A DNA stretch of 50,308 nucleotides from an uncultured Acidimicrobiia bacterium. Lineage in GTDB: Bacteria; Actinomycetota; Acidimicrobiia; Spongiisociales; JAOTWH01. Shown in pieces: positions 12,140-32,547 of this stretch. Below the pieces are notes generated by a model that saw only the letters and a list, made by a program, of their open reading frames with translations, was not told the DNA's origin and ran no database searches. The translations under genes were made by a program, and so were the position numbers. How positions within the stretch are numbered: the stretch's first letter is position 1; each line of letters opens with the position of its first letter. Location of the stretch: NCBI GenBank assembly GCA_964347285.1, contig CAYFYE010000007.1, positions 1 to 50,308 on the forward strand. The letters run 5' to 3'.

Positions 12140-12616
12140 GTGGCCGATCCGATGACCAGGCGCAAGTTCCTCGCCCGGACCACCGTTGCCATCGGAGCGG
12201 TCCTGACCGCCGGCCTCGCCGTTCCAGCCGTCGCTTACGTGCTCGGCACGGCCGGCCAGAGGGCCCGTACCCTGGAGTGGAAGCCTCTCGGGGCGGCCGG
12301 CAAGATCGAATTGGGCATCCCGACCCTCTTCAAGATCACCGTCGAGCGCACCGCCGGCTGGGTGACCCAGGAGGAGGAGATCTCGGTGTACGTGATCACC
12401 GAGAACGGTCGGGATTTCGTGGCCCTCTCCAACGTGTGCACCCATCTGAGCTGCCGGGTGCGCTGGGTCGACGATCAGCAGTCGTTCTTCTGTCCGTGCC
12501 ACAACGCCGTGTTCTCGAAGACGGGTGAGGTCGTGTCGGGTCCTCCGCCGCGACCGCTCGACCGGTTCGAGGTCAGGACTGAGGCGGGACAGGTCCAGGT
12601 GGCGGTGGAGGTTTGA
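12140..12616 (+). CDS. qcrA: Rieske [2Fe-2S] subunit of a menaquinol:cytochrome c reductase
   Basis: Tat motif TRRKFL plus TM; CTHLSC and CPCH boxes; GPPPRPL. GTG start behind GGAGGG. Confidence 0.92.
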   Translation: MADPMTRRKFLARTTVAIGAVLTAGLAVPAVAYVLGTAGQRARTLEWKPLGAAGKIELGIPTLFKITVERTAGWVTQEEEISVYVITENGRDFVALSNVCTHLSCRVRWVDDQQSFFCPCHNAVFSKTGEVVSGPPPRPLDRFEVRTEAGQVQVAVEV

Positions 12617-12617
12617 T

Positions 12618-13277
12618 GTGACTGAGGGGCCCGGAACCTGGCTGGAGGAACGGACGGGCGCCCGGACCGTCTGGGAGACGCTCTTTCTTCGCAACATCCC
12701 CAAGGTGAACTGGCTCTACACCCTGGGGAGCGCCACGCTATTCGTGGTGGTGAACCAGATCGTCACCGGGATCCTGCTCACCATCTACTACGTGCCCAGT
12801 CCCCAGGACGCCTACGACACCGTCAACTTCATCGACAGCAGCCTTCCGGCCGGATGGCTGATCCGGGGCATGCACCGCTGGGGCGCCACCGCCATGGTGG
12901 CCCTCGTGCTTCTCCACATGTTGCGGGTCCTGTACCACGGTGCTTACAAGTATCCCCGGGAGATCACCTGGATCACCGGCGTGATTCTGCTACTGATCAC
13001 CCTGGCCTTCGGATTCACCGGGTACCTGCTCCCGTGGGATCAGAAAGCCTTCTGGGCCACCACGGTGGGGACCAGCATCATGGATGCAGTTCCCGGTATC
13101 GGCGACTGGCTGTTGCGCGCCGCCCGCGGCGGAGAGGAGTTATCTGCCGTAACCCTGTCCCGGTTCTTCGGGATCCACGTGTGGATCCTTCCTGCCGCGC
13201 TGCTGGTCACGCTTGGTTTCCATCTCTACCTCGTGGTCAGGAACGGCATCACCGAGCCGCCCCGCAGGAAAGACTGA
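12618..13277 (+). CDS. qcrB: Cytochrome b, short b6-type (N-terminal half)
   Basis: TGILLTIYYVPS, GWLIRGMHRWGA, LHMLRV, FTGYLLPWDQ, RFFGIHV, FHLYLV; 219 aa. Confidence 0.92.
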   Translation: MTEGPGTWLEERTGARTVWETLFLRNIPKVNWLYTLGSATLFVVVNQIVTGILLTIYYVPSPQDAYDTVNFIDSSLPAGWLIRGMHRWGATAMVALVLLHMLRVLYHGAYKYPREITWITGVILLLITLAFGFTGYLLPWDQKAFWATTVGTSIMDAVPGIGDWLLRAARGGEELSAVTLSRFFGIHVWILPAALLVTLGFHLYLVVRNGITEPPRRKD

Positions 13278-13283
13278 TCTCCG

Positions 13284-15368
13284 ATGAAAGATGAGGAGAA
13301 GAGGGAGTACCTCGAGGAGTACCAGGAGGCCAAGAAACGGGGCATCCCGTTCTTCCCCGACGCGATCTTCAAGGATGCCGTTGTTGCCCTGCTGGTGTTC
13401 CTGGCACTGGTCGGTTTGGCCGCCTTCATCGGCTCCGAGCTCGACGAACCCGCCGATCCGGCCGCCGAGTTCGATCCCCGACCCGAGTGGTATTTCCTGT
13501 TCCTCTTCCAGCTGCTGAAGCACTTCCCGGGAAACCTGGAGTTCGTCGGCGCGGTCGTGCTTCCCACCGTGGTCATCATCCTCCTGTTCGCCCTGCCCTG
13601 GCTCGACCGCTCCAGGCGCCGCCATATCCTGGCCCGCCCCGTCGTGCTCGGAGTGAGCCTCTTCGTGATTGCCGGCGTCGTGCTGCTGAGCGTTCAGGCT
13701 CTGCTGGAGACCCCGCCTCCCTCCGGTGTCGAGGCGGCCGGCGATCCGGTGGCCGCCCTCTACACCGACAACTGCGCCGGTTGCCACGGGGGAGTGGTCA
13801 CCGTTCCCGAAGGCGTCGACCTGATCACAGTGATCACCACCGGCGGTCACGAGGGCATGCCCTCCTGGAGCGCCGACCTCTCGTCGGACGAGATCGACGC
13901 ACTGGCCGGCTTCATCCTTTCGCCGAGCGGCTTCGCCGTGTTCGAGTCGTCGTGCGCCGAGTGCCACGAGGTCGCCGACCTGAGCGCTGCCAGCCCATCC
14001 GACTTCCGGGCGGCCCTCCAGGAGGGCACCGACTTCGCCCCCCACGCCGGTGCCGGGACCCCCGATTTTGCCGCGGTCCTGTCGCCCCAGAGTCGCACCG
14101 CTCTGCTCAACTTCCTGGTCGCTCCCGACGGCCAGCGGCTCTTTGCCGTCAACTGCTCGTCGTGTCACGGGAGTGCGGTGGCCTGGACGGGGAGCCGAGA
14201 GGAGCTGCGCCAGGTCATCGAACAAGGAGGGCAGCACCTCGACATGCCGGCAATGGGGGCCATCCTCAGCGACACCGAGGTGGCCCAGCTGGCCGACTAC
14301 GTGGTGATGCCGACCGGTGCGACCGAGGGCAGCGCGCTGTTCGCCCGGCACTGCACGACGTGCCACGGTGGCCGGATCCCCACCGCCGAAACCCTGGAAG
14401 AGGCCACCGTCGCCATCACCCAGGGTGGAGGTCACGAGGACATGCCGGTGTGGGGAGAGATCCTGACCGAGGAACAACTCGACGCGCTCACCGATTACGC
14501 GCTCGAAGCGGCGCGGGGCACTCCGGTCATGGCCGGCCAGGAGCTGTACGCCGCCAACTGTGTGGTCTGTCATGGGGAATTCGGCGAGGGCGGACCTAAC
14601 CCGGCCAACCCCGCCCAGATCATTCCCCCGATCAGCACCGCCGGCTACCTGTCCACGCGCGATGACTTCACGCTGCGGGCCATCATTTCCCAGGGCCAGC
14701 CCGACTTCGGGATGTCTCCATTTGGCCTGGCCTTCGGCGGCTCTCTCGATGGGGAAGACGTCGACGCATTGGTGGCCTTCATCAGGTCGTGGCAGGACAA
14801 CCCGCCGGTGGAGCTGCCTCCCGAGGTCCAACGAGGACCTTTGGCGGGAACTCCGGCCGAGGTGTACGAGGAGTTCTGCGCCCAGTGCCATGGATTGGAG
14901 GGTGAAGGCGGAATTGGGCCGTCGTTCCAGGATCCCGCATTCCAGACGGGGATGAGCGACGCCGAGCTCGTCGAGACGATCGATCTCGGACATGCCGCCA
15001 CCGCCATGATCGCCTGGGGGGAGGTGCTCACCGACCCTCAGATCGAGGGCCTGGTCGAGTTCATCCGGCGGCTGGGGGGAATCGAAGGAGCCGAGGTCTC
15101 GTTCGCCAACGATGTGCTGCCGATCTTCGAGGCCGAGTGTGTGGTGTGCCATGGGGCGTCGGGGAACTGGGCCGCCGACAGCTACCAGGCGGTGATGGGG
15201 ACCGGCGATTCGGCCCCGGTGGTGATTCCCGGCGACCCGGATGAGAGCGTGCTCGTGCAACGGCTGGAGGGGACCGAAGGGGCGCTGATGCCCCCGGCCG
15301 GGAAGTGGCCGGACAGCCAGATCCAGCTCGTCCGGGACTGGATCGCCGCCGGCGCCCAGGACAACTGA
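13284..15368 (+). CDS. qcrC: Cytochrome b6 subunit IV (PEWY) fused to seven c-type cytochrome domains
   Basis: PFFPD, RPEWYFLF and three TM segments, then CAGCH, CAECH, CSSCH, CTTCH, CVVCH, CAQCH, CVVCH; the last domain is planctomycete cytochrome c-like. Confidence 0.88.
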   Translation: MKDEEKREYLEEYQEAKKRGIPFFPDAIFKDAVVALLVFLALVGLAAFIGSELDEPADPAAEFDPRPEWYFLFLFQLLKHFPGNLEFVGAVVLPTVVIILLFALPWLDRSRRRHILARPVVLGVSLFVIAGVVLLSVQALLETPPPSGVEAAGDPVAALYTDNCAGCHGGVVTVPEGVDLITVITTGGHEGMPSWSADLSSDEIDALAGFILSPSGFAVFESSCAECHEVADLSAASPSDFRAALQEGTDFAPHAGAGTPDFAAVLSPQSRTALLNFLVAPDGQRLFAVNCSSCHGSAVAWTGSREELRQVIEQGGQHLDMPAMGAILSDTEVAQLADYVVMPTGATEGSALFARHCTTCHGGRIPTAETLEEATVAITQGGGHEDMPVWGEILTEEQLDALTDYALEAARGTPVMAGQELYAANCVVCHGEFGEGGPNPANPAQIIPPISTAGYLSTRDDFTLRAIISQGQPDFGMSPFGLAFGGSLDGEDVDALVAFIRSWQDNPPVELPPEVQRGPLAGTPAEVYEEFCAQCHGLEGEGGIGPSFQDPAFQTGMSDAELVETIDLGHAATAMIAWGEVLTDPQIEGLVEFIRRLGGIEGAEVSFANDVLPIFEAECVVCHGASGNWAADSYQAVMGTGDSAPVVIPGDPDESVLVQRLEGTEGALMPPAGKWPDSQIQLVRDWIAAGAQDN

Positions 15369-15397: not shown

Positions 15398-16276
15398 ATG
15401 GGTCGCCTGCCCGGGCCGGTGCAGGTCCCCACCAACGGCATCGAGCTGAGCGTCGTCGTCGAAGGTGAGGGCTACCCGGTGGTCCTCCTTCACGGGTTCC
15501 CGGAGCTGGCCTACTCCTGGCGGTTTCAGGTCCCGGCGCTGGCCGAGGCGGGCTTTCGAGTCATCGCCCCCGATCTGCGCGGCTACGGAGGCTCGGACAA
15601 GCCGCCCGACACCGAGGCCTATCGGCTGTCGGCCCTGGTCGCCGATGTGCTCGGCGTGCTCGACGCCCTCGAGGGGGAGCGGGCGGTGGTGGTGGGCCAC
15701 GACTGGGGCAGCATCATCGGCTGGAACCTGGCCCTGGCCCATGCCGACCGTGTCGAGCGCCTGGTGAGCCTCAACGTTCCCTACCGTGGGCATCCCGGCG
15801 GTTTCCCCAACACCACGTACATCCGGGAGCATCTGGCCGACCGGTTCGGCTACGTGCTCTTCTTTCAGGAGCCCGGCCCGGCGGAAGCCTGGTTCGCCCA
15901 GGATCTGGCGCTGCGGCTTAGAACGATCTACCAGGGGGTGGCCGCCGACCCCTCGTTCATGGGCGACGACGAGTTCGCCGTCTATCTGAACGCGTTTCGG
16001 GCCGGGGGTATGACCGGTCCGCTCAACTATTACCGCAACATAGACGCCAACTGGGCGGCCACCGAAGCGTCGGCCGGGTCGCCCGTCCGGGTTCCGGCCC
16101 TCATGGTCACGGCCGACTCGGATCCGGTGCTCCCGGCATCGCTCGCCGAGGGCATGGATCGCTGGGTTTCCGAGCTGCGGGTCGAGCACATCAGGCGCTG
16201 CGGGCACTGGACGCAGCAGGAACGGCCCGGTCCGGTGAATGAGGTTCTGTTGGACTACCTCGGAGATCTTCGCTAG
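15398..16276 (+). CDS. Epoxide hydrolase-like alpha/beta hydrolase
   Basis: LLHGFPE, PDLRGYG, GHDWG, LNYYR, GHWTQQE motifs. Confidence 0.9.
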   Translation: MGRLPGPVQVPTNGIELSVVVEGEGYPVVLLHGFPELAYSWRFQVPALAEAGFRVIAPDLRGYGGSDKPPDTEAYRLSALVADVLGVLDALEGERAVVVGHDWGSIIGWNLALAHADRVERLVSLNVPYRGHPGGFPNTTYIREHLADRFGYVLFFQEPGPAEAWFAQDLALRLRTIYQGVAADPSFMGDDEFAVYLNAFRAGGMTGPLNYYRNIDANWAATEASAGSPVRVPALMVTADSDPVLPASLAEGMDRWVSELRVEHIRRCGHWTQQERPGPVNEVLLDYLGDLR

Positions 16277-16315
16277 CAGGGCGCCCGGGCACCGCCCCGT
16301 CTGCCCGGCGGAGGG

Positions 16316-17905
16316 CTAGTAGCCCGATGTCGGGGTGTGGCACTGGGTGCACTTGATGGTCTTCCACACCTCGCCGATGTCCACCGGGTGTTCGAATTCC
16401 AGCCCGGCGATGTCGTCGTCGAGCTCCATCAGGTCGTCGGATGGGCCCTGGGCAACGATAGAGTGACAGCTCTCGCAGTCACTCGAGATCCGCTCGCCGG
16501 CCTCGTTCTCCAGCTCGGTGAAGTGGCACCGGAAGCATCCATCGTTGACGAAGTGGCTGAGATGGTTGACGCGGGCCCGATAGTCGGTCTTCATCTCGGG
16601 GAAGAAGTTTTGGTTGTAGATCCGCTGCAGGACGTCTCCCGCCTGCTCGACCTTGTCCCTCAGGACTTCCATCTCGTCGGGGTACTGCGTCGAGTAGAAC
16701 TCCACGAGCCCGGTCCGGATCGCTTCGTTTGCCTCTTCCCGGGTCTCGTACGAGTCGTTCAGCAGCTCGAGACCGACCTTGCGGATGAAGTGGAGATCCT
16801 TGGCGATGGTGCCTTTGGCCAGCTCCAGGTTCATCGCCGTGGCCGGTGGTTCGAACGTGTGGCTGGGACGGTTGTGGCAGTCCATGCAGTCGAACAGGCG
16901 GATCTCGGTGTCCCCGTCCTCGGGGTCGGGGATCTCGGCGTTGGGGTCCGCGTACACAGTCACGCTGCCGTCGCTCGGGTCGGTCACTCGGACCCAGGGG
17001 ATCACTTCCCGTTTCTCGTCCGTGGCGATGTACTCCACCTGGGCGCTGCTCAGCATGTGCCAGTGGATCCCCTCGAGCTTGCCGGTGCGGGGATTCCCGC
17101 CCCCGATGTTCATGAGGAGGCTGATCGTCCACGGCGAGTTGTCCTCGTCGGTCCGGTAGTAGCTGCGGTTGACCAGCTTCTGTCCGATGAATTGCTGCGG
17201 CCAATGGCAGCCCTCGCAGGTCGCCTGGGCGGGCCGGAGGGTTTCGACCGGAGTACCGATGGGCCGTTCGAAGCTGTTGGTGGCGGTGGCGTAAACCTGA
17301 CGGATGCCGTCGATCTTCGATTTGACCCAGAACGACCCGCCGGGACCGATGTGGCAGTCCACGCAGGGCACTCGGGCATGGGGTCCGTTGGCGTAGGTGA
17401 CGTTCTGCGGATCCATCACATGGCACGACTCGCCGCAAAAGCCGACCGAGTCGGTGGCCTCATATGCCTTGAACCCGCCCCAGGCCACGACGGCCACGAA
17501 GACGCCGCTGAGGCCGAGGAAGAACCACAGGTTGCGCATGTAGTGAGGGTCGGAGACCTCGATCCGTAACACGAAACGAACTCTCTCTCCGCGCCTTCGA
17601 GCCGCCCGGACCTGAAGCCATATGGCGACCAAGAAGAGAATCACTCCGATGGTGACCACGGCCGGGGCGGCGACGAAGGTCACCAGCGAGCGATAGGGGT
17701 TCTCGGACTTCGTGGCGATGTCGACGGCGGCGAGGACGACGAACGCGAATACGCCGGCGACGATCATGGCCCCGCCCACGGCCGCCAGCGGGTGGCGGTA
17801 CAGGGTCCTCGTTTCGAGTTCGCCGCCCGCGGGTTCCGGGCCGTTGCCCGAACTTGGGACCTCGTCCGGCTCCCGGTACTCCTCCGTGGGGCCTCTATCG
17901 CTCAG
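16316..17905 (-). CDS. NapC/NirT-related membrane heptaheme cytochrome c (ImcH-like quinol oxidase)
   Basis: Three N-terminal TM segments; CGESCHVM (CX3CH-x-M), CVDCH, CEGCH, CMDCH, CFRCH, CESCH, CTQCH; GIHWH. Start probably CTG 17905 behind GAGGT; nearest GTG is 17779. Confidence 0.8.
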   Translation of the reverse strand: MSDRGPTEEYREPDEVPSSGNGPEPAGGELETRTLYRHPLAAVGGAMIVAGVFAFVVLAAVDIATKSENPYRSLVTFVAAPAVVTIGVILFLVAIWLQVRAARRRGERVRFVLRIEVSDPHYMRNLWFFLGLSGVFVAVVAWGGFKAYEATDSVGFCGESCHVMDPQNVTYANGPHARVPCVDCHIGPGGSFWVKSKIDGIRQVYATATNSFERPIGTPVETLRPAQATCEGCHWPQQFIGQKLVNRSYYRTDEDNSPWTISLLMNIGGGNPRTGKLEGIHWHMLSSAQVEYIATDEKREVIPWVRVTDPSDGSVTVYADPNAEIPDPEDGDTEIRLFDCMDCHNRPSHTFEPPATAMNLELAKGTIAKDLHFIRKVGLELLNDSYETREEANEAIRTGLVEFYSTQYPDEMEVLRDKVEQAGDVLQRIYNQNFFPEMKTDYRARVNHLSHFVNDGCFRCHFTELENEAGERISSDCESCHSIVAQGPSDDLMELDDDIAGLEFEHPVDIGEVWKTIKCTQCHTPTSGY

Positions 17906-17954
17906 GGCGCACCTCGCTTTCGGTGCGAACGTAGGTGAGGCTCACCCTCGGGTC

Positions 17955-17974
17955 GTAGGGTCCAGAGTCCCAAG
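17955..17974. promoter_or_regulatory. DosR/DevR-like palindrome upstream of the ImcH-like gene
   Basis: GTA-GGGTC-CAGA-GTCCC-AAG; a weaker adjacent copy begins at 17977. Confidence 0.6.
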
Positions 17975-18022
17975 AGTAGGGGACGTTGGGCCGGGTTCCG
18001 CCGTGTGGACGACGGCGCCGGC

Positions 18023-19222
18023 TCATCGTTGTGGGGCGCCCGCCAGGATCCAGTCGCGCACTGCCTCGATCTCGTCCTCGGTCAACTGGGCGGGATGGCC
18101 TCCGGCGACCTGTGTAACCAGCACCTGGCTCTGCTCGGGCTCACCGGCTACGATCCCCGGTCCGCCGGCGCCACCGGCGATTGCGGCCTCATAGGAGCTG
18201 AGATCGAGGCCGGCGGTGGCGTTGGCCGAACCGTGACACACGCCGCACTTCTGCGAGAACAGCTCGGCAAATTCGCCGTCCCAGGTGGCGGCCGCAGAGG
18301 GCGCCACCGTCGTAGCTCCGGGTGCCGTCGAAGTGGTCGTGGTGCCGGGCGAAGTCGTGGTCGGTGCCGGAAGGGTCGTTTCCGTGAGGGGGGCGAACAC
18401 GGTGACCGGCTCGGCAGGCTCGATGGTCTGAATGGCGGTCTCCTCGAAGCTCACGAACAGCCAGATGCCCGCCAGCATGATCCCGGCAAAGGCCCCGTAG
18501 GCCGGCAGGTATCTGCGACGACGCTGTATCCGCTCTTCGGGATCCGTTCGGCCTCCCGACTCCCCTGCCTTTATGGCGGCCAGCTCGAGGGCGTGCTCTT
18601 CGAGCATCTCCTCCCGGGAGATGTACCCGGTGAAGATCGTGGTCTTGAAGGTTCTGATGTGCACGTGGTAAATGTGCCAGACGACGATCGCCAGCACGGC
18701 CAGCAGCGCTTCGCCGCCGTGGATGGCCCTGGCGGCAGGGATGAACTCCCCCGGGAGGAATCGGGCGCTGGCAATGGGGTTCCACAGCAGGAAGCCGGTG
18801 ACGATCATGATGACCGTTCCCCATACCAGGGACCAGTACTCGATCTTTTCCTCGAAGGTGAACCTGCCCTGCTCGGGTCTGCGGTCGCGCCACCCCAGGT
18901 TGTAGCCGAGCGACTGCCAGGCGGCCCGCAGATCGTCGACCCCGGGGATCATTGCCCGGGGGGTGCGGAGGACGTAGGCACGGTATCCGGCAACCCCGAA
19001 GTGATACACGACCGCCACCATGAGGATCGCGGAAAAGACTCGGTGGATGATGCGGACGGCCTCGATGCCTCCGAGCAGGTCGATGATGGCCTGCGAAAAA
19101 GACGCAGCGTGATACCGCTGCACCAGACCGGTGACCGCCAGCGGGACGAAGGTCCCGATCTGGACCCAGTGCTCGGCCCGATCCGAGATCGAGAAGCGTT
19201 TGTAGCGTTGAGCCTCAGTCAC
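18023..19222 (-). CDS. FdnI/HydC-type cytochrome b with a Thr-rich linker and a C-terminal monoheme cytochrome c domain
   Basis: RF...DRAEHW, RIIHR, GRFTFEEKIEYW, AIHGGEA, WHIYHVH; TTTSPGTTTTST linker; CGVCH. Confidence 0.85.
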   Translation of the reverse strand: MTEAQRYKRFSISDRAEHWVQIGTFVPLAVTGLVQRYHAASFSQAIIDLLGGIEAVRIIHRVFSAILMVAVVYHFGVAGYRAYVLRTPRAMIPGVDDLRAAWQSLGYNLGWRDRRPEQGRFTFEEKIEYWSLVWGTVIMIVTGFLLWNPIASARFLPGEFIPAARAIHGGEALLAVLAIVVWHIYHVHIRTFKTTIFTGYISREEMLEEHALELAAIKAGESGGRTDPEERIQRRRRYLPAYGAFAGIMLAGIWLFVSFEETAIQTIEPAEPVTVFAPLTETTLPAPTTTSPGTTTTSTAPGATTVAPSAAATWDGEFAELFSQKCGVCHGSANATAGLDLSSYEAAIAGGAGGPGIVAGEPEQSQVLVTQVAGGHPAQLTEDEIEAVRDWILAGAPQR

Positions 19223-20387
19223 GGCGCCGCCTGCGATTGCGGAGGAGGCGCCTGCCGCCGTCGATGCTCACATAGGCGAGCATCGCCCCGATCACGACCG
19301 GAATGATGATCTTGTAGAAGAGCCTCGCCGCGAACACGAGCGGCGAGTGCTCGACGGTGGGCTGGTAGTGACTGAGCCAGGCGGCCGGAAAGTTCGTGGT
19401 GGCGTCGGGGTGACAACGCTGGCACGTTCCCAGCAGGTTCTCCCTGAAGACCGAGCTCCCGGGGTCCTCGGCGGGAACGATGTGGTGCACCCCGTGGCAG
19501 TCGATGCACACCGGCTTGTTGGTCTCCTGGTCCGGGGCGAGGTCCTCGAAGAGCAGCACCGTGGTGCCGTGGAAGTCGGCGATGTACGTCTCGAACACCT
19601 CCGTGCTGATCCCGTATTTGCCCATGAGTTCGGAGTCCGCATGGCATTCGGCGCAGATCTCGGGCGAGAACAGATGGAACGGCGAGTCGGTGGGACCCTC
19701 GACGCTGTGCACACCGTGGCAGTCGGTGCAGGTGGGAACGTCCTGGTTGTCCTCCTCGAACAACGCGGCGCCGTGGACGCTTTCGGCATAGAGGTCGTAG
19801 ATCTGGGAGTGACAGGCCCGGCAGGTCAGCGGGATCGCCGTGCTCGTTTCGCCGCGACGCACCACATCGTGGGAGCCGTGGCAGTCGGTACACACCGCGG
19901 CCTCCTGGTTCCCCTCTTCGAGGGCGTGGGCGTGGACGTTGTCGAGGGTGGCGGTGTACTCCGGCTCGTGACAGACCGAGCACGACTGGTAGAGGTCGAG
20001 GGTGAACTCGCGTCGTGACTGTGCCGTCAACGCAGGATGGGGGAAGCCTTCGATGTTGGTGTGGCAGAGGACGCAGGGCAGCTCCAGCTGGCCGTGCACG
20101 GACTTCTCGTAGGTGGTCCGATCGACCACTGCGTTGAGTATTTCTCCCGAGGGGAGGGGCACCTCCAGGCTCTCCACATCGTGGCAGCCCAGGCAGAACT
20201 CGTTGTCCCAGCGCTGATCCTCCTGGGCCTCCTCCTGAGCCGAGACTCCACCGCCCGGCCCCACAACCACGAAGAAGAACCCGGCCGTAACCGCGAGGAG
20301 CAGGCCCCCGATCGACCGGTGTTGCCGGCCCGCATTCGGGTTCCGGGCCGAACCGTGCCGTGATCCCTCAGGCGCGCTCCGTTCCAC
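19215..20387 (-). CDS. Nonaheme cytochrome c with signal peptide and C-terminal TM anchor (CbcL c-domain-like)
   Basis: CLGCH, CVLCH, CSVCH, CTDCH, CRACH, CTDCH, CAECH, CIDCH, CQRCH; recurring SVHG/NVH distal-His motifs; overlaps the cytochrome b start by 8 nt. Confidence 0.88.
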   Translation of the reverse strand: MERSAPEGSRHGSARNPNAGRQHRSIGGLLLAVTAGFFFVVVGPGGGVSAQEEAQEDQRWDNEFCLGCHDVESLEVPLPSGEILNAVVDRTTYEKSVHGQLELPCVLCHTNIEGFPHPALTAQSRREFTLDLYQSCSVCHEPEYTATLDNVHAHALEEGNQEAAVCTDCHGSHDVVRRGETSTAIPLTCRACHSQIYDLYAESVHGAALFEEDNQDVPTCTDCHGVHSVEGPTDSPFHLFSPEICAECHADSELMGKYGISTEVFETYIADFHGTTVLLFEDLAPDQETNKPVCIDCHGVHHIVPAEDPGSSVFRENLLGTCQRCHPDATTNFPAAWLSHYQPTVEHSPLVFAARLFYKIIIPVVIGAMLAYVSIDGGRRLLRNRRRRRD

Positions 20388-20421
20388 TACTGCCGACCGT
20401 ACCTCCGGCCTCGCGACCTGC

Positions 20422-20441
20422 TCAGGGCCGAGAGGCCCGAT
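20422..20441. promoter_or_regulatory. DosR/DevR-like palindrome upstream of the nonaheme/cytochrome b pair
   Basis: TCA-GGGCC-GAGA-GGCCC-GAT. Confidence 0.5.
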
Positions 20442-20584
20442 TGGGGCGGGACCTGTGGGTACCCATCGGCTGGTCGTCCTCGACCCGCCGACTGCTGCCG
20501 GTCGCCACGAGGCTCGGGGAAGGGAGAGGTCCCAGGGTTTCGCGAGAACTGCGAAACACTCCGGGACCTGCCCCTAGCCAGCGT

Positions 20585-20983
20585 TCAGCCGGTCCACTCG
20601 TAGGCGATCCAGTGGTAGTTCCGCTCGGCGTCCACCTCGTATTCGATGACCGTCGCGACGTTCATGAGTCGCTCCAGCTCCCCAGTCGCCTCTGGCCAGC
20701 TACCTGCTACTCCGAACTTGGCGGCCGGAGGCGCACCAACTGGCTTCCCGACACCGAAGCCTTCCCAGACGTACCGGCTCCCTTCGGCCGTCATGGCGAC
20801 GGTACGACCTTCTCCATAGAGCACGCCCGGTCGCCGAATCGTTTGGACATAGGTGCCGGCCTCGGAGATGTCGTGACCCAGGACCATGCCGCGGCCCTGG
20901 AACGATATCTCCAGCTTGCCTTCGGGAAGCACCCGAACGCCGGTGATTTGGCCGGAAGCCTCTCCAATCTTCTCCCCTTGCAT
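20585..20983 (-). CDS. Hypothetical beta-rich protein (132 aa)
   Basis: Clean ORF with GAGGTG RBS and protein-like composition; function not recognised. Confidence 0.7.
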   Translation of the reverse strand: MQGEKIGEASGQITGVRVLPEGKLEISFQGRGMVLGHDISEAGTYVQTIRRPGVLYGEGRTVAMTAEGSRYVWEGFGVGKPVGAPPAAKFGVAGSWPEATGELERLMNVATVIEYEVDAERNYHWIAYEWTG

Positions 20984-21371
20984 GACGTCACCTCTCGACG
21001 CGCGCTTCGATAAGCGGATACTTGGAAACTCACCCCCTCCCCGGGGCTATCTTCCGGGCGATCGCCCGATGCCCTCATGGCGCACGATGCCAGGGCGTTG
21101 CGGCACGTACTAGGGGCGAACGGCACTACAGATCGCTGATGGGGCGTGCCGCGCGGCGCGACTCTCCTCGACTTCCAGGGCTGGTCCGCAGCGCGGGCAG
21201 GTTGCCGGTTCCGCCGCCGCAACATGCCGCCGACGGGCGCGGCGCCGCCTTCGTGAGGCCGTGACGGCAGTTTCCCGCCCGCTGGAGTGCCGTCGCCTGC
21301 CAACCCCGCCCCGCGGCGCGAATGCCCGTCACCCATGGGCAATTCCAGCCGGGGGCGCGTAGTTTGCGGTT

Positions 21372-23270: not shown

Positions 23271-24425
23271 ATGGCGGCGAGGAGGCTCATGGGTACAGCT
23301 CGGCAAGCGCCCGTCGGCGGGTCCCGAAGGGCGTATCTGGTGGGGGCGGGTGCACTCGTCGTTGCAGTGGCCCTGGCGGTCTTGCTCTCGGGCGTCGGCG
23401 GGCCGGGGCTGGTTCTGCCGAGCGCGGCGGTTTTGCTGGCGCTGATAGCGCTGCTCTACAAGCGAGCCCGGCAGGCGGCTCCATCCGCTTCACAAACCCA
23501 CAAGAGCCTGCTGCGCCGGTTCGCCGGTGGTTCGAGGATCACCGATCGCCGCACGGCGCTCCGGCTGATCGGCATGTCGGCCTTGTTCGCCGGTCCGTTG
23601 CAGGCGGTCCCGCGGGTGCTCGAACGCGCACTCGGCCAGGAAGCCTCCAACGTAGTGGCCCAGGAGGACCAGCCGTTCTTCTTCCGCGTCCGCCAGTGGA
23701 CGATGATCATCGACCTCAGATTCTGTGACGGCTGTCAGAGTGTCGGCACGCCTCCCCGGTGCACGACGTCCTGTGTCGAGGGTCATCTGGCGCCGGCCCC
23801 CATGCAGTGGATCGAGGTATTCGAGGAGGAGCTGCCGGGTGAGGGCACTCGATTTCTGCCGACACCGTGCCAGCACTGCCAGAACCCGCCGTGCGTCAAC
23901 GTGTGCCCGGTGGCAGCCACGTTTTCCACGCCCGAAGGTTTGGTGCTCATCGACCAGGACCGCTGTATTGGCTGCCGCATCTGCATGGCGGCGTGTCCCT
24001 ACGATCGCCGGTTCTTCAATTGGGGCGACCCGCCCATACCTCCCGAGGCCCTCACAGCAGACTACGACCTGGAAGTACAGACGCCGGCCGTCAAGGGCAC
24101 CGTCATGAAGTGCGACTTCTGTCCCGACATGGTTCGGGCGGGCACGCTCCCCTATTGCGTGCAGGCGTGTCCGAATCAGGCCATCTACTACGGGGATCTC
24201 GAGGAGGACGTCGCCTCCAACGGCGTGAGCGTGGTTGCGGTGTCCAAGTTCGTGGCGGAGAACGACGCCTTTGTCCTCAAGGAAGAACTGGGCACCAAGC
24301 CGCGGGTGTTCTACATTCCCGGCCACGGTGAGGCGGTCGGACGCCTCACGACCGATGAGGGTCTGTTGCCGGTGCACTGGCCGTGGACGAGGCCCGTCGA
24401 GGGGAGCGACCAATGGAGCCGCTGA
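23271..24425 (+). CDS. NrfC/DmsB-type 4x[4Fe-4S] ferredoxin subunit with an N-terminal membrane extension
   Basis: WTMIIDL..CDGC-X8-CTTSC, PCQHCQNPPCVNVCP, CIGCRICMAACPY, KCDFC...CVQACP, LKEELGTKPRVFY. Alternative ATG at 23289. Confidence 0.88.
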   Translation: MAARRLMGTARQAPVGGSRRAYLVGAGALVVAVALAVLLSGVGGPGLVLPSAAVLLALIALLYKRARQAAPSASQTHKSLLRRFAGGSRITDRRTALRLIGMSALFAGPLQAVPRVLERALGQEASNVVAQEDQPFFFRVRQWTMIIDLRFCDGCQSVGTPPRCTTSCVEGHLAPAPMQWIEVFEEELPGEGTRFLPTPCQHCQNPPCVNVCPVAATFSTPEGLVLIDQDRCIGCRICMAACPYDRRFFNWGDPPIPPEALTADYDLEVQTPAVKGTVMKCDFCPDMVRAGTLPYCVQACPNQAIYYGDLEEDVASNGVSVVAVSKFVAENDAFVLKEELGTKPRVFYIPGHGEAVGRLTTDEGLLPVHWPWTRPVEGSDQWSR

Positions 24426-25768
24426 CCGACTGGCAGCGGCGACTCGAGGAAACGACCCTCGAACCGGCTCGGACGACTACCCGTGCCTACTACCTCGTCG
24501 TGGCCGGACTCATGGCGATCCTCGCCGTGGCCGTGTATGCCTGGTCGGTCCAGATTCGCGACGGCCTCGTGGTGACCGGCATGCGAGACCGCATCTCATG
24601 GGGCCTCTACATCACGATGTTCGTGTTCTTCATCGGCATCAGCCATGCCGGCACCCTCATCTCTGCCATCTTGCGGGTGTCCAACGCCACGTGGAGGACG
24701 CCGGTCACTCGCATGGCCGAGTTCATCACCACCGTGGCTCTGCTGACCGGTGCGCTGTTCGTCGTCGTCGACCTGGGTCGTCCCGACCGACTGCTCAGCG
24801 TCCTGGTGCACGGACGGTGGCAGTCACCGATCGTTTGGGATGTGCTGGCGATCTCCACCTACCTCGTGGCCAGCATGGTGTACCTGTACTTGCCGATGAT
24901 TCCGGACCTGGCCCTGTTCCGCGATCGGCTCAAGGGTCGAGTCTCGGCGTGGCGGATCTTCTGGTACCGGCACCTCGCCATCAACTGGAAGGGGACCGAG
25001 CGCCAGAAGTCCAAGCTGCACACGTCTATCTCGATCATGATGATCCTCATCATCCCGATAGCCGTGTCGGTGCACACCGTCGTGTCGTGGATATTCGCCA
25101 TGACGCTGCGGGAGGCGTGGAACAGCGCCATCTTCGGCTTCTTCTTCGTAGCGGGGGCCATCTTTTCGGGGATCGCCACGCTGATCCTCATGATGGCGAT
25201 CCTGCGGCGGGTCTATCGCCTCGAGGAGTACATCACCCAAAAGCACTTCCTTTACCTCGGTTACCTGATGGCGACCATGGCGGCGGTGATGATCTATGCC
25301 AACGTTTCCGAGTACGTCACCTCCGGTTTCAAGTTCGAGGAAGGCTCGGAGTTCATCTTTCGCCAGCTCTTCGTTGCCGAGTTCGCCCCGTACTTCTGGT
25401 TCTACTTCATCGGCGGCCTGATCGTTCCCATCGCGCTCATGGTGCTGCCACCGACGCGCACGATTTGGGGGGTCGTCGTCGCTGCGATCCTGGTGGATGC
25501 CGGGATGTGGGTGGAGCGTTACTTCATCGTCGTTACCGGTTTGCGAGCGCCGCTCATGCCGTACGAGCCCGCCAACTACGCCCCGACCTGGGTCGAGTGG
25601 ATGATCACCCTGGGCGGCTTTGCCTTCTTCGCCCTGCTGGTGACCCTGTTCGTCAAGGCGTTCCCGATCATGGCGGTGTACGAGATGACGGAGGAGCGTG
25701 AGAAGGTCACAGCCCCGGCGGTCGCCGAGCCGGTTGCCGGTACGCTTTCGGAAGGAGCACCGTCATGA
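24413..25768 (+). CDS. NrfD/PsrC/ActC-family quinone-interacting membrane subunit
   Basis: GLVVTGM, WGLYITMFVFFIGISHAGTLISAILR, TRMAE, DLGRPDR, SPIVWDV, VSVHTVVS, WVERYFIV, YAPTWVEW motifs. Confidence 0.92.
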   Translation: MEPLTDWQRRLEETTLEPARTTTRAYYLVVAGLMAILAVAVYAWSVQIRDGLVVTGMRDRISWGLYITMFVFFIGISHAGTLISAILRVSNATWRTPVTRMAEFITTVALLTGALFVVVDLGRPDRLLSVLVHGRWQSPIVWDVLAISTYLVASMVYLYLPMIPDLALFRDRLKGRVSAWRIFWYRHLAINWKGTERQKSKLHTSISIMMILIIPIAVSVHTVVSWIFAMTLREAWNSAIFGFFFVAGAIFSGIATLILMMAILRRVYRLEEYITQKHFLYLGYLMATMAAVMIYANVSEYVTSGFKFEEGSEFIFRQLFVAEFAPYFWFYFIGGLIVPIALMVLPPTRTIWGVVVAAILVDAGMWVERYFIVVTGLRAPLMPYEPANYAPTWVEWMITLGGFAFFALLVTLFVKAFPIMAVYEMTEEREKVTAPAVAEPVAGTLSEGAPS

Positions 25769-27141
25769 AACGCTGGCGTAGGCGGGCGATCTCGCTGACC
25801 GTCTTGGTGGGCGCGGCGTTGTCTCTACTCCAGGGAGGGGCGGCAGCCGACCATCTCGTGATCGAGCTCACTGCTCCCGAGGAGGCGACCCTCGGGGAGT
25901 CGCTTCAGATCACCGCCGCAGTGTACTGGGCGGAAGACGGAGAGCCCGCCGACGGGATACCGATAACGTTCTTCACCGATGCGGCATTCGCCGGGGTCAT
26001 CGGTGACGTCGAGCTGGGCACGGTCACCACCAACGAGATCGGGGTGGCCACGTTTCCGGTCTCCTTCTTGGTCAGCCGTCAGCACACGATCCGTGCCGAG
26101 GCAGTGGCTCAACCGGGTGCCGAGCCGGAATCGGTCACGGTCCCGGTTCTGGCCACCCGGCAATTGGTCACGTCGGAGGCCGGAATTCGGATCCCCGGGA
26201 TCGGAGGCTGGCTGCTGGTGGTCCTCATCGGCTCCGTTTGGGCGATCATGATCTTCGCCGCTTTCCGGGTCGTCGTGGTTTCCCGGGCCCATGAGGAAGG
26301 CAGGGGCGTCTCCGACGCGCTGGCCGAAGGTCGCCGGGAGGGATGGGCCAGCAGGCACCACTTCAATCTGGCGGTGCTGGTGGCCGGGATCATGATCGTG
26401 CTGAGCCTCGGCTTGCTGGTTCTCCTGGTGAGAAGCCCCGATACCCATGCCAACCTCAACCCGGAGGGCTACGACCGCACCGTGGTGGCCTATACCAACG
26501 CCTCCTATCTGTATCCGGGGCCCGGACTCGCCGCAGGCAGCTTCACTGGGGATCTCGTGGAGGACGGTCGGCTCTTGTTCGTGAGCAAGGGCTGCGCCGG
26601 GTGTCACGGTCTCGAGGCCGAGGGCGCTGTTGCCGCGGCGTCTCCCGCGCTGGTCAGCCGGGACTGGCTCGGCGATGTGGTTCGCTCGGGGATCCGGGGG
26701 CTGATGCCGTCCTACTCCGAGGTCGAAGTGAACGAGCCCGGACTCGACGCCATCTACGCGTTCTTCGAGGAAGCTCGCCAGGCCCTCGAGGCGGAGTCCC
26801 CCGCAACAACGGTGGGCGAGCCCGAGGCGACGGCTCCCCTCGCTGCGCCCGAGGAGCACCCGACCCCCACCTACACCGACGATGTCGCGCCGATCTTCCG
26901 GGCTCAATGCGTCGTGTGCCATGGGGACGCCGGTGGGTGGAGCGCCGCCGACTACCAGTCGGTGATGACGAGCGGGGACCACGGCCCGACGGTGGTGCCG
27001 GGCCGCCCGGAGGAGAGCTTGCTGGCCCAGAAGATCCTGGGAACCCAGACCGAGGGAGCGCTGATGCCCCCGGGCGGGCGGCTATCCGACCAGGACATTC
27101 ACACGATCGTTGACTGGATCCTGGGCGGAGCTCCGGAGTGA
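25765..27141 (+). CDS. Membrane diheme cytochrome c (signal, Ig-like beta domain, 2 TM, two c domains)
   Basis: KGCAGCH...LMPSY and CVVCH...LMPP (planctomycete cytochrome c-like); ATGA coupling to the nrfD-like gene. Confidence 0.8.
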   Translation: MKRWRRRAISLTVLVGAALSLLQGGAAADHLVIELTAPEEATLGESLQITAAVYWAEDGEPADGIPITFFTDAAFAGVIGDVELGTVTTNEIGVATFPVSFLVSRQHTIRAEAVAQPGAEPESVTVPVLATRQLVTSEAGIRIPGIGGWLLVVLIGSVWAIMIFAAFRVVVVSRAHEEGRGVSDALAEGRREGWASRHHFNLAVLVAGIMIVLSLGLLVLLVRSPDTHANLNPEGYDRTVVAYTNASYLYPGPGLAAGSFTGDLVEDGRLLFVSKGCAGCHGLEAEGAVAAASPALVSRDWLGDVVRSGIRGLMPSYSEVEVNEPGLDAIYAFFEEARQALEAESPATTVGEPEATAPLAAPEEHPTPTYTDDVAPIFRAQCVVCHGDAGGWSAADYQSVMTSGDHGPTVVPGRPEESLLAQKILGTQTEGALMPPGGRLSDQDIHTIVDWILGGAPE

Positions 27142-28832
27142 GCATGGATCGGAAACGGCAGGCCCCGAGATTGTTCCTCTTCGGGGCGTCCGCGCTGGTT
27201 GCGGTCGCATTGGCCGTAGCCGGTGCCGCAGCAGCGGCCGGTGCCGCCACCCCGAAGCAGGATCTACCGACCGCCAGAGCCCTCTCTTCAGAGCTCCAGT
27301 ACCAGATCGATGACATCGATGAAGACTCCGAGCCGATCTACGCCGAGCAATGCGCTGCCTGCCATGGCGCGGACGGCGAAGGCGGCGTGGGGCCCGCCTT
27401 CACCGAGAGCACGCTCACGTTGCCCGAGCGAGTGGATCTCATCACGGAGGGCCGCGGCGGCATGCCGGGATTCGACGCGACCCTCACCGCCGACCAGATC
27501 GCTGCGATGGCCTCCTTCCTGGACACATTCGTCGCCCAGGAGATCTACAGACAGCAGTGTGCCCCCTGTCACGGTGCCGATGGCGAGGGCGGGATCGGCC
27601 CGGGACTACAGCAAAGCAACCTGACGGACGCCGAGGCACTGGACATCATCGGTCAGGGGCAGGGGGCCATGCCGGCCTTCGGCCCCACCCTCACCGCCGA
27701 CCAGCTCGCCGCCGTGACGGATTTCACCGTCGGCCTCAGATCCATCGAGGCCATAGGGGAACAGGTCTACGTGGAGCAGTGTGCGCCTTGCCACGGCCTC
27801 GAGGGCGAGGGCGGGGTCGGCACCAACCTGCAGACGAGTGTTCTGCCACGACAGGAGCTCTCGACCCTCATCACCGAGGGGCGTGGCGGTATGCCGGCTT
27901 TCGCTGCCACGCTCGGCCCGGAGGAGATCGAGGGTGTCGCCGACTACGTTGCCGGGCTGCGGGCGGCGACGGAGGAGCCGAGCGCCGCGGAAGCGGGGGC
28001 CGAGCTCTTTTCCCAGCATTGTGCCGCTTGTCACGGCGCCGACGGTTCCGGAGGTACCGGTCCATCCCTGACGGAGTCCGACCTCTCCTTCAGTGAGATG
28101 GTCTTGCTGGTGGCGGAAGGGCGAGGGCCCATGCCTCGCTTCTCAGAGACTCTGTCCGGCGATGAGATTCAGGCGGTGGCCACTTACACCGCCGGGCTCG
28201 AGCCGGCGGAGATCGCCCAACCAGAACCGGCCGGGGCCGAGCTCTACTCCCAGCAATGTGCCGGTTGCCACGCCGCCGATGGCTCGGGGGGGGTGGGACC
28301 CTCCCTGCAGACTGCGGCTCTTTCGAACGAAGAGCTGCTGGCGCTGGTCTCCGACGGCGCCGGCTCCATGCCCGGCTTTGCCGCTACGCTCACCGACGAT
28401 GAGATCCAGGCGCTGATCGCCTACGTCCGGGAGTCGCTGGTCGTCGAAGTCGAAGAGGGCGCTGCCGGGCCGACCGGGCAAGAGCTGTTCGAGGCCGAAT
28501 GTGCGCCGTGTCATGGAGTTCAGGGCGAAGGAGGCATCGGGCCCTCGTTGCGCGAATCCGATCTCTCGGTGAACCACGTGATCTCGCAAATCTTCGGTGG
28601 TCACGGTCCCGAAATGCCGGCATTCGAGGGAGAGCTCGACTCCGGCCAGGTCCAGGCAGTGGCCCAGTACGTCCTGTCTCTGCGGGATGTGGCTCAGCCG
28701 GACGAGGGCGGCGGAGTGGGCCTGTTTGTGATCGTGGCTGTCATCGTCGGCGCTGTGGTGGTGATCTCCGCAGGACTGGCTTGGCTGAGAACACAGAAGA
28801 GGGACCGGTCGGACTCCGACGTCCAGGTCTGA
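27138..28832 (+). CDS. Membrane-anchored cytochrome c built from six tandem class I (c551/c6-like) domains
   Basis: CAACH, CAPCH, CAPCH, CAACH, CAGCH, CAPCH, each followed by G.GG.G and MPxF; N-terminal signal and C-terminal TM. Confidence 0.88.
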   Translation: MSMDRKRQAPRLFLFGASALVAVALAVAGAAAAAGAATPKQDLPTARALSSELQYQIDDIDEDSEPIYAEQCAACHGADGEGGVGPAFTESTLTLPERVDLITEGRGGMPGFDATLTADQIAAMASFLDTFVAQEIYRQQCAPCHGADGEGGIGPGLQQSNLTDAEALDIIGQGQGAMPAFGPTLTADQLAAVTDFTVGLRSIEAIGEQVYVEQCAPCHGLEGEGGVGTNLQTSVLPRQELSTLITEGRGGMPAFAATLGPEEIEGVADYVAGLRAATEEPSAAEAGAELFSQHCAACHGADGSGGTGPSLTESDLSFSEMVLLVAEGRGPMPRFSETLSGDEIQAVATYTAGLEPAEIAQPEPAGAELYSQQCAGCHAADGSGGVGPSLQTAALSNEELLALVSDGAGSMPGFAATLTDDEIQALIAYVRESLVVEVEEGAAGPTGQELFEAECAPCHGVQGEGGIGPSLRESDLSVNHVISQIFGGHGPEMPAFEGELDSGQVQAVAQYVLSLRDVAQPDEGGGVGLFVIVAVIVGAVVVISAGLAWLRTQKRDRSDSDVQV

Positions 28833-31452: not shown

Positions 31453-32547
31453 TCAGGGTGCTGTGGTCGTCGTCGTGGTCTCGGAGACGACTGCTTCCGG
31501 CAGTACCTCGAGCGCGTACTCCAGCAAGGCCCTGGCGAACGGCGGATTGTGGACGCCCTTGCTCTGATCTTCGAGGACGAACATGTAGTTCCACATCGCG
31601 TTGGCGACTTCTTCGGGGAACGTGCCCTCGACCGACCGGTTCTCCGACAGTTCCTCGCCTTCGCCGATGTCGACCAGGATGCCGGCGGCGCTCAATCGAG
31701 CCTTGGTCTCCGCCAGCATCTCCTCGATCTCGGTCTGGACTCCATTGCGATCGAAGGTGTCCAGATCGGCATGACAGCTCTGGCAATTGTCCAGGCTGGG
31801 TTCGAACGTGTGATTGCGGCTCTCGCCCATGTGGCAGCCGACGCAGGTGTTCTCGACCGCATAGTGGAAACTCTCCGAGCCGGTGACCCCAAGTCCGCCG
31901 ATGCCGAGCAACATCTGTGATTCGACGCCATGATGTGTGCCGAAGCGAGTGCTACCGGTCTCGATCTCACCGCCGGTCGCCACCGGCAACTCGTTGCGGA
32001 TCTGGTGGCAGTTCGCGCACAGGTTGCCGAGACCCCCGTCGAACGTGCCGCCGGTTGTCTCCATCTCCGCGGGTTGGGCATCCCCGGTCAGGGAGAAGTC
32101 GGCAGCCGTGTAGGTGGTGTGGATGTCGTGGCACGTGCGACAGGTATATGGCGAAACGTTGACTATGCCCTCCACCGAGGGGTCGTGCGGTGGAAGTCCC
32201 GCCTCGATGCGCGTTTCGGCGCCCTCGCTCCCGTGACACCCCGCGCAGTTGGTGTTTTCGCCTCGTATGAATGCCTCTCCGGCTCCGTGCAACGACTCCT
32301 CCAACTGCGCCTGCTTGGAGACGAGGAGCGTCCCGCTTTCGTGGCATTCGGTGCACGTGAGGTCGGTCGCGACGGCCGCCTCGGCGGCAGGACCGGGGGG
32401 CCCCTCAGGACCGGGAGGACCGGGGGGGCCTTCAGGACCGGCAGGACCGGTATCACCACTGCAGCTGGCCAGGGCAAGGAGAAGGCCGACCATCAGCGCC
32501 AAGGGGACGTACCGGCTGAGGGGGCGGTGTCGGTGTTCTCGGTGCAT
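31453..32547 (-). CDS. Hexaheme cytochrome c lipoprotein with a collagen-like stalk
   Basis: Lipobox LAS-C; (Gly-X-Y)8 GDTGPAGPEGPPGPPGPEGPPGPA; CTECH, CAGCH, CRTCH, CANCH, CVGCH, CQSCH; WNY..VLEDQSKGVHNP; GGAGGAG RBS. Confidence 0.88.
   Translation of the reverse strand: MHREHRHRPLSRYVPLALMVGLLLALASCSGDTGPAGPEGPPGPPGPEGPPGPAAEAAVATDLTCTECHESGTLLVSKQAQLEESLHGAGEAFIRGENTNCAGCHGSEGAETRIEAGLPPHDPSVEGIVNVSPYTCRTCHDIHTTYTAADFSLTGDAQPAEMETTGGTFDGGLGNLCANCHQIRNELPVATGGEIETGSTRFGTHHGVESQMLLGIGGLGVTGSESFHYAVENTCVGCHMGESRNHTFEPSLDNCQSCHADLDTFDRNGVQTEIEEMLAETKARLSAAGILVDIGEGEELSENRSVEGTFPEEVANAMWNYMFVLEDQSKGVHNPPFARALLEYALEVLPEAVVSETTTTTTAP

Follow-up and report, generated by a model that had tools for sequence, protein, structure and literature searches.

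Extracellular electron transfer begins with quinol-oxidizing cytochromes, and to our knowledge those that serve it have been studied almost solely in Geobacter and Shewanella. A 50,308-nt stretch from an uncultured Acidimicrobiia bacterium (assembly GCA_964347285.1, contig CAYFYE010000007.1, positions 1 to 50,308; hereafter the window) raises the question of whether cytochromes of the two Geobacter types, ImcH and CbcL, are encoded next to each other in an actinobacterium. The initial annotation had proposed this for three neighbouring genes, reading them as ‘ImcH-like’ and ‘split CbcL-like’ quinol oxidases, each unit with its own upstream palindrome. Our analysis indicates that the trio probably encodes two membrane modules, distinct from each other and each of a known family, that act as quinol:cytochrome c oxidoreductases, likely drawing on menaquinol and passing electrons to haem proteins at the outer face. 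The genes and the intervals around them are:

16316-17905 (−), predicted ImcH-family heptahaem quinol dehydrogenase; the longest open reading frame (ORF) from ATG, GTG or TTG is 16316-17779 (487 aa), and from CTG 17905 the protein has 529 aa
17906-18022 (−), spacer between the cytochrome b gene and the ImcH-type gene; 117 nt, short hairpins only (z −2.4)
18023-19222 (−), cytochrome b subunit; 399 aa, identified by Pfam, NCBIfam and PDB matches and by alignment to FdnI
19215-20387 (−), nonahaem cytochrome c subunit; 390 aa, identified from the ORF list, a motif scan and a profile search
20521-20575 (−), strong hairpin; −40.7 kcal/mol, z −4.4, matched by 1 of 200 shuffles

The nonahaem and cytochrome b subunits

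The nonahaem protein carries nine CXXCH motifs (residues 65, 105, 136, 166, 189, 220, 245, 294 and 322) between a signal or anchor at its N-terminus and a C-terminal transmembrane (TM) helix, placed at about 348-378 by a hydropathy script. Nine histidines beyond those of the motifs are invariant in its alignment, and a W-L-S-H340-Y stretch is conserved; a conserved histidine ahead of TM1 is common to this pair of proteins and the CbcL/MtrH/MtoC family. Its Pfam matches are to generic multihaem families only. The stop codon of its gene shares 8 nt (GTGACTGA) with the GTG start of the cytochrome b gene.

The cytochrome b subunit matches PF01292 (62 bits against a cut-off of 30.1, E = 6e-17), FdnI in the PDB (1kqf_C, E = 2e-7) and, with scores short of the cut-offs, NCBIfam models of the FdnI type (TIGR01583, E = 5e-16); a protein atlas search returned PF01292 clusters only. 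Together with the overlap, these profile and PDB matches bear out the initial description of a nonahaem c gene overlapping an FdnI/HydC-type cytochrome b gene. TM helices were assigned by the hydropathy script and the FdnI alignment and give a predicted four-helix dihaem b core (H18, H60, H168 and H183), a fifth TM helix at 239-259, a T/P-rich linker and a monohaem c domain. H18, H60 and H168 are invariant, Escherichia coli FdnI included; H183 is invariant within the family and lies one column off the fourth FdnI ligand. The monohaem tail (CGVCH at 326, C326-H330; PF07635 PSCyt1, E = 1e-8), absent from the initial annotation, would face outward, as haem c attachment requires, given an N-in topology and five helices. 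Orthologues of the b subunit carry between 0 and 5 such tail domains.

Formate dehydrogenase-N of E. coli (PDB 1KQF) offers a structural parallel. FdnI, taken with the anchor helix of FdnH, is likewise a four-helix dihaem cytochrome b with the same histidine pattern, and FdnH and the nonahaem protein, the two partner subunits, each supply one C-terminal TM helix. The b subunit of the window is only 21% identical to FdnI and adds a fifth helix and a c domain, and its partner is a multihaem cytochrome, whereas that of FdnI is an iron-sulfur subunit.

The fold of the nonahaem chain is less easily placed. Its AlphaFold2 model (predicted local distance difference test score (pLDDT) 76) gave nothing at E <= 0.001 in a Foldseek search of the PDB, the best matches being HAO (0.024) and MtrA (0.087), and VIA-align superpositions on these two had Z values of 6.0-6.3, too weak for naming the fold. 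The superposition on the linear haem wire of decahaem MtrA (Shewanella Mtr complex, PDB 6R2Q chain A; VIA Z 6.0, root-mean-square deviation 4.5 Å over 209 residues) is below the reliability level of the tool. Further, MtrA has no membrane anchor and sits inside an outer-membrane porin, whereas the nonahaem protein is predicted to be anchored by its C-terminal helix.

Sequence relationships to the CbcL/MtrH/MtoC family extend over both proteins. CbcL of G. sulfurreducens (GSU0274) is described as a 619-aa protein with nine c haems, two b haems and six helices (PMC9129911). The window pair has nine c haems and one TM helix in its first protein and five TM helices in its second, six in total, and thus shows the haem count and domain order that the initial annotation had ascribed to CbcL: nine c haems, then TM1, the b core and the last TM helix. 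Nine haems are also found in MtrH and MtoC. The features that define the family, a multihaem c domain (3-23 CXXCH), a dihaem b domain and the helix order c, TM1, b core, last TM, are all present; the pair departs from it in being two genes with an 8-nt overlap where the family has one polypeptide, and in its extra monohaem c domain on the T/P-rich linker past the last TM helix.

Fused members of the family are collinear with the pair at 29-38% identity, as three single-chain proteins illustrate by BLASTP. In a 730-aa Nitrospirota form (36-37% identity), residues 46-381 of the nonahaem protein align to 153-479 and residues 2-215 of the b subunit to 494-711 (E = 2e-70 and 3e-44). In a 732-aa protein with 13 haems, nonahaem residues 65-386 align to 131-471 and b residues 4-223 to 490-721, and E values to 13-haem fused proteins reach down to 2e-43 for the nonahaem protein and 5e-41 for the b subunit. 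In a 923-aa protein with 19 haems, nonahaem residues 156-390 align to 424-639 and b residues 5-258 to 648-913 (E = 1e-29 and 7e-30); this last protein adjoins imcH in a Calditrichaceae metagenome-assembled genome (MAG), and its haem positions track those of Cabys_319 in Table S2 of PMC6295460. In the multiple alignment, the fused forms pass from the anchor helix straight into ‘RF..ER..H’, the opening motif of the window b subunit. Because the pair is collinear with single-chain proteins from end to end, we assign it by sequence as a two-gene homologue of the CbcL/MtrH/MtoC architecture, with the break between TM1 and TM2.

Is the pair then a CbcL that has been split? The spacing of the haem motifs (40, 31, 30, 23, 31, 25, 49, 28) is unlike that of G. 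sulfurreducens CbcL (23, 25, 23, 24, 29, 28, 43, 28), only partly like that of MtoC and MtrH, and matches that of the last nine haems in Nitrospirota 13-haem proteins (37-38, 31, 30, 23, 31, 25, 48-53, 28). The c proteins of the latter type are partnered by cytochrome b proteins of 213-250 aa by ORF scan (loci L110 and L117-L120; genomes G041, G207, G155, G077 and G264). In a quick IQ-TREE phylogeny of cytochrome b with SH-aLRT support (46 rows, Geobacter CbcL, MtrH and MtoC not among them), the window b subunit falls in a mostly split Actinomycetota clade of 14 rows (support 98), sister to the Nitrospirota 13-haem + b rows (joint clade, support 98), and the split or fused state changes at least three times on the tree. 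As far as can be told, the pair is probably not CbcL proper, since the spacing differs and the b subunit belongs to a separate, mostly split clade.

Split forms are common, and in several phyla the CbcL-type module is usually encoded by two genes. The best 120 homologues of the nonahaem protein are all 318-419 aa long, and the b core is matched (E <= 1e-8) in 112 of 301 sampled Nitrospirota genomes, mostly by open frames of 230-330 aa. Among proteins of at least 700 aa, the closest relatives (48-59% identity) are cytochrome b subunits that bear tails of four or five monohaem domains, and N-terminally fused relatives reach 38% identity at most. A gene-call artefact as the source of the split was considered and rejected, since every relative examined has kept both the overlap and the split state. 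The initial ‘split CbcL-like’ is therefore right at the level of the family, as the collinearity shows, and ‘CbcL split into two genes’ overstates both orthology and the direction of change, because the spacing differs, the b subunit sits in a separate clade and split forms are common. Both states can also be seen at one locus: in a Melioribacteraceae MAG (L062, 2163-7674), a split pair of a 23-haem c protein and a 281-aa b protein adjoins a fused bc protein of 16 haems, and imcH is no more than 8 kb from either.

A two-gene bc cytochrome is also known from Geobacter itself. CbcBA (GSU0593-0594) likewise pairs a multihaem c protein bearing a C-terminal anchor with a separate dihaem b protein, as described in 10.1101/2021.04.15.440034. 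By that description, with which the window is compared here, CbcA has seven haems against nine in the window c subunit, and CbcB has four TM helices and three histidines, with the fourth coming from CbcA, against five TM helices and all four FdnI-type histidines in the window b subunit; CbcB is said there to be without sequence homology to CbcL. CbcL homologues have been reported in 8 of 19 Thermoleophilia MAGs (10.1101/2022.03.26.485925). A literature search found no description of a split CbcL-type module or of ImcH in Acidimicrobiia.

The ImcH-type protein

The third gene encodes a protein with one CX3CH motif (CGESCH, 115-120) and six CXXCH motifs (139, 188, 298, 415, 435 and 477). The 487-aa ORF has hydropathy TM segments at 4-22, 35-53 and 84-102, all ahead of the CX3CH, and the AlphaFold2 model of the 529-aa form has helices at 39-64, 70-104 and 120-159 (pLDDT 64-89 there); the model is poor overall, with a mean pLDDT of 56 and values below 50 in the haem domain. 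It matches NapC/NirT PF03264 (41 bits, cut-off 24.1; E = 2e-10) and NrfH, both as TIGR03153 (E = 3e-18, below cut-off) and in the PDB (2j7a_C, E = 2e-8). The motifs, helices and profile matches uphold the description of a three-TM NapC/NirT-type heptahaem protein on the same strand as the bc pair.

Published criteria for the ImcH family, as given by Zhong & Shi 2018 (PMC6295460), are three TM helices, a CX3CH beside them and five to nine CXXCH motifs, and the window protein shows all three. The spacing of its motifs (24, 49, 110, 117, 20, 42) closely follows that listed for GSU3259 in Table S3 of that paper (24, 49, 106, 117, 20, 38). We therefore assign the third gene to the ImcH family by published structural criteria, and ‘ImcH-like’ stands, every published structural hallmark of the family being present in the predicted protein.

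The likeness to Geobacter ImcH (GSU3259, 507 aa against 529 aa here) includes the three N-terminal TM helices, the CX3CH right after TM3, the six CXXCH at near-equal spacing, NapC/NirT/NrfH homology over haems 1-3 and a conserved Lys/Gln pair near haem 1 that may correspond to the Geobacter pair. The differences are its membership of a separate, very conserved clade, an apparently monoderm Acidimicrobiia host and a probable CTG start, and the two proteins are likened by way of the motif table. NrfH of Desulfovibrio vulgaris (PDB 2J7A/2VR0) is matched over its last TM helix and haems 1-3; it has one TM helix, four haems and a CXXCH at haem 1 and is bound to NrfA, in contrast to the three TM helices, seven haems and CX3CH of the window protein.

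In the NrfH alignment, M49 corresponds to M122, D89 to Q161 and K82 to S154, next to K155. K155 and Q161 vary little if at all and lie six residues apart, like K173 and Q179 of Geobacter ImcH; counted from the haem motifs, they are one residue off the Geobacter numbers. By sequence, the NrfH-type quinol-site pattern thus appears to be kept in M122, Q161 and K155. This alignment agrees with the His/Gln coordination of haem 1 and the conserved lysine described for ImcH in a preprint (10.1101/2023.05.03.539133).

The start of the gene is best placed upstream of the conventional ORF. Ahead of GTG 17779 the frame runs without a stop through 54 codons, none of them ATG, GTG or TTG, and encodes RTLYRHPLAAVGG, which is conserved in homologues. 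CTG 17905 has a GAGG 6 nt upstream, and an 83% identical homologue (P0002) of 529 aa begins MSD where the window reads LSD. The gene therefore probably starts at CTG 17905, given the conserved RTLYRHPLAAVGG, the GAGG and the resulting length of 529 aa, equal to that of P0002.

The family is large, with 5047 matches among the 7999 candidates scored and 597 genome loci, of which we examined the best 80 (L025-L104; none from Desulfuromonadia). The CX3CH occurs once in all 80 homologues, and 78 of them have six CXXCH; the CX3CH is invariant in alignments of 20 and of 122 rows. A FastTree phylogeny of 88 sequences has two fully supported halves. Clade A (38 rows, support 100) holds the window protein and is unusually conserved across phyla, at 56-83% identity; in it, 21 Actinomycetota-type rows group together (99), alongside members of Ignavibacteriota, Zixibacteria and Calditrichota and a single Pseudomonadales MAG. 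Clade B (50 rows, 38-45% identity) includes Melioribacteraceae, Caldithrix, Korobacteraceae and Omnitrophota, kin of the organisms whose ImcH homologues are listed in Table S3 of PMC6295460. The occurrence of Ignavibacteriota, Zixibacteria and Calditrichota in both clades suggests old paralogues.

Linkage and separability of the modules

Do the two cytochrome types form one machine or two? Evidence for a close association comes first from inheritance. Of 40 related genomes, 10 match the ImcH-type protein, and it is these 10 that also match the nonahaem protein and, strongly, the b subunit. In all 10 the trio is adjacent: among 12 stretches fetched from related genomes, the three genes are contiguous in 10, and the remaining two hold a divergent pair of a 15-haem and a b protein 2.4 kb from imcH and a lone second imcH. 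This contiguity, here and in the relatives, confirms that both cytochrome types are encoded side by side. The topologies of the ImcH and cytochrome b trees largely agree, and the modules are inherited together in Acidimicrobiia. The trio is absent from all seven same-family genomes (70-89% complete). Across many phyla, 23 of the 80 loci have a window-like b gene no more than 8 kb from imcH, 11 of them among the 27 loci of the close group and 12 among the 53 of the distant group; in 8 of the 23 it is a fused form. Finally, in Tables S2 and S3 of PMC6295460, homologues of ImcH and of fused CbcL are neighbours by locus tag in three MAGs (A2X79_01185/01190, A2X96_02395/02390 and A2X92_08560/08565). 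The available text of that paper makes no remark on this adjacency.

Evidence for separability comes from the loci where one module stands without the other. No window-like b gene lies within 8 kb in 57 of the 80 ImcH loci, and second ImcH copies stand alone at two loci (L024 and L046). Conversely, none of the five Nitrospirota genomes with the nearest bc pair has a full-length ImcH match, two giving NrfH-sized partial matches. Even among the contiguous trios, three of the 10, all from one genus, have a convergent orientation, and in the window the 117-nt spacer with its hairpins separates the b gene from imcH. Geobacter depends on ImcH and CbcL at different potentials of the acceptor, and the ImcH protein has been isolated and studied alone, as described in 10.1101/2021.04.15.440034 and 10.1101/2023.05.03.539133. 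Because each occurs without the other, we read the trio as two separable, co-located modules and not as one machine. The conserved, recurrent arrangement, like the probable CTG start, goes beyond the initial annotation.

The proposal of an upstream palindrome for each unit fared less well. A strong hairpin does lie upstream of the nonahaem gene; it begins 10 nt after the stop of an upstream ORF, about 135 nt before the nonahaem start, and is the probable terminator of that ORF, just after whose stop it lies. Before the ImcH-type gene there are only weak hairpins. Hairpins as unit-specific operators were therefore rejected, one being a probable terminator and the others weak. No sigma-70-like promoter was found within 16000-21000. 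The upstream ORF (20585-20983 (−), 132 aa) has no Pfam match and no counterpart at the loci of the relatives.

The surrounding cytochrome island

The 2.63-Mb assembly contains seven ORFs of at least 80 aa with at least three CXXCH motifs, and six of them are in the window, which makes the cytochrome cluster a feature beyond chance; the window is the cytochrome island of this genome. The seventh such ORF, on another contig (C3; G000:C3:4133-6655), has 12 motifs, 840 aa and a C-terminal TM helix. Beside the trio, the island includes:

12525-15368 (+), a cytochrome b6-type gene, then a gene for a 694-aa fusion of a subunit-IV-like protein with seven monohaem c domains
23271-28832 (+), genes for a 4Fe-4S protein of the NrfC type, a membrane protein of the NrfD type and two further proteins, one of 458 aa with two c haems and one of 564 aa with six monohaem c domains
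28929-31166 (−), a decahaem lipoprotein-like cytochrome, a candidate electron acceptor
31453-32547 (−), a hexahaem lipoprotein-like cytochrome, a candidate further member of the chain

The genes at 23271-28832 look like an alternative-complex-III-like quinol:cytochrome c module. No Rieske gene was recognized among the scanned ORFs beside the b6-type gene. Both the decahaem and the hexahaem protein have lipoprotein-like N-termini, and a PDB sequence search with them returned nothing meaningful; in 5 of the 12 fetched stretches, a homologue of the decahaem protein is encoded no more than 8 kb from the trio. Elsewhere in the genome there are haem-copper oxidases, with four COX1 matches.

Copies of the PSCyt1-type monohaem c domain, 36-37% identical, close three complexes of the island: the b subunit (18026-18250), the b6/subunit-IV-c fusion (15099-15359) and the NrfD-associated c protein (26752-27138). 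The same end domain on three membrane complexes hints at one common redox partner.

Proposed electron path and alternatives

By analogy with NrfH, ImcH and CbcL, both modules would oxidize quinol at the outer face of the membrane. Electrons may then flow out by way of the nonahaem chain, the tethered monohaem domain and haem 7 of the ImcH-type protein to the lipoprotein deca- and hexahaem cytochromes, and from these to an extracellular acceptor. As in Geobacter, the two modules would serve as alternatives for different conditions and not as parts of one complex. The high-potential and low-potential routes of the initial annotation would likewise be a transfer from Geobacter. ImcH is reported to oxidize menaquinol and reduce PpcA in 10.1101/2023.05.03.539133. 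The direction of electron flow and the final acceptor are drawn here from such analogies.

Several points weigh against this picture. The first b helix (about 18-38) is below the hydropathy threshold and was placed by the FdnI alignment only. The relation to the studied ImcH and CbcL proteins runs through published motif tables and intermediate sequences, and both halves of the trio keep some distance from those proteins. On the ImcH side, clade A is separate from the clade holding the kin of the Table S3 organisms, and its function could differ. On the bc side, the window b subunit does not join the all-fused clade, in which the tail spacing (30, 28-29, 42-43, 28) is close to that of CbcL (29, 28, 43, 28), and is also apart from the Caldithrix-type clade with MtrH/MtoC-like tail spacing. 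Finally, the direction could be inward, since MtoC-type relatives are proposed to be quinone reductases in iron oxidizers (PMC6295460), and the electrons may go to oxygen and not outside, given the four haem-copper oxidase matches and the class-I-type c tail.

Inward flow is the alternative that survives best, and we still regard it as unlikely. Here electrons from donors outside the cell or at its surface, Fe(II), Mn(II) or reduced humics, would pass through the lipoprotein cytochromes to quinone, as proposed for MtoC of iron oxidizers. According to PMC6295460, CbcL/MtrH/MtoC homologues occur in Fe(III) reducers and Fe(II) oxidizers alike, and the haem-copper oxidases would make aerobic lithotrophy possible. 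ImcH homologues, however, have so far been tied to quinol oxidation only, by the same source, and the window sequence holds no directional marker, that paper likewise reporting none.

An aerobic branch, in which quinol electrons would reach the haem-copper oxidases through the tethered class-I c domains with no extracellular acceptor, seems to us a poor prospect. The COX1 matches agree with it, the PSCyt1-type domain on three complexes suggests a common soluble-type partner, and the varying number of tail domains among relatives points the same way. Yet wires of nine and ten haems and lipoprotein multihaem cytochromes are unnecessary for reaching an oxidase, the b6-type and NrfCD-type complexes of the island already suit that role, and the named relatives work in extracellular electron transfer.

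A single supercomplex, with ImcH docked on the bc module and, for instance, a shared nonahaem exit or a redox loop linking a quinol site at the outer face to the b haems, draws on the adjacency and tree congruence described above and is rendered improbable by the many loci with one module alone. We hold just as doubtful its fuller version, in which the clade-A ImcH, the split bc pair and the lipoprotein decahaem cytochrome would be one inherited conduit of a monoderm cell, with ImcH and the b subunit each providing a quinol site and both discharging into one nonahaem wire within the same supercomplex; if true, this would be the Gram-positive equivalent, differently built, of the inner-membrane exit of Geobacter.

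Implications

Read as two separable quinol-oxidizing modules, the trio opens no new mechanism. The families are known; what is new is the split, tailed, actinobacterial form. In Actinomycetota of the Acidimicrobiia type, presumably monoderm, both families stand in one conserved block beside lipoprotein multihaem cytochromes. A naturally split bc cytochrome might be easier than CbcL for expression and structure determination. Table S2 of PMC6295460 has no Actinobacteria or Chloroflexi rows by term search, and surveys that seek fused homologues only would miss the two-gene form, which bears on counts of electroactive potential in sediments and soils.

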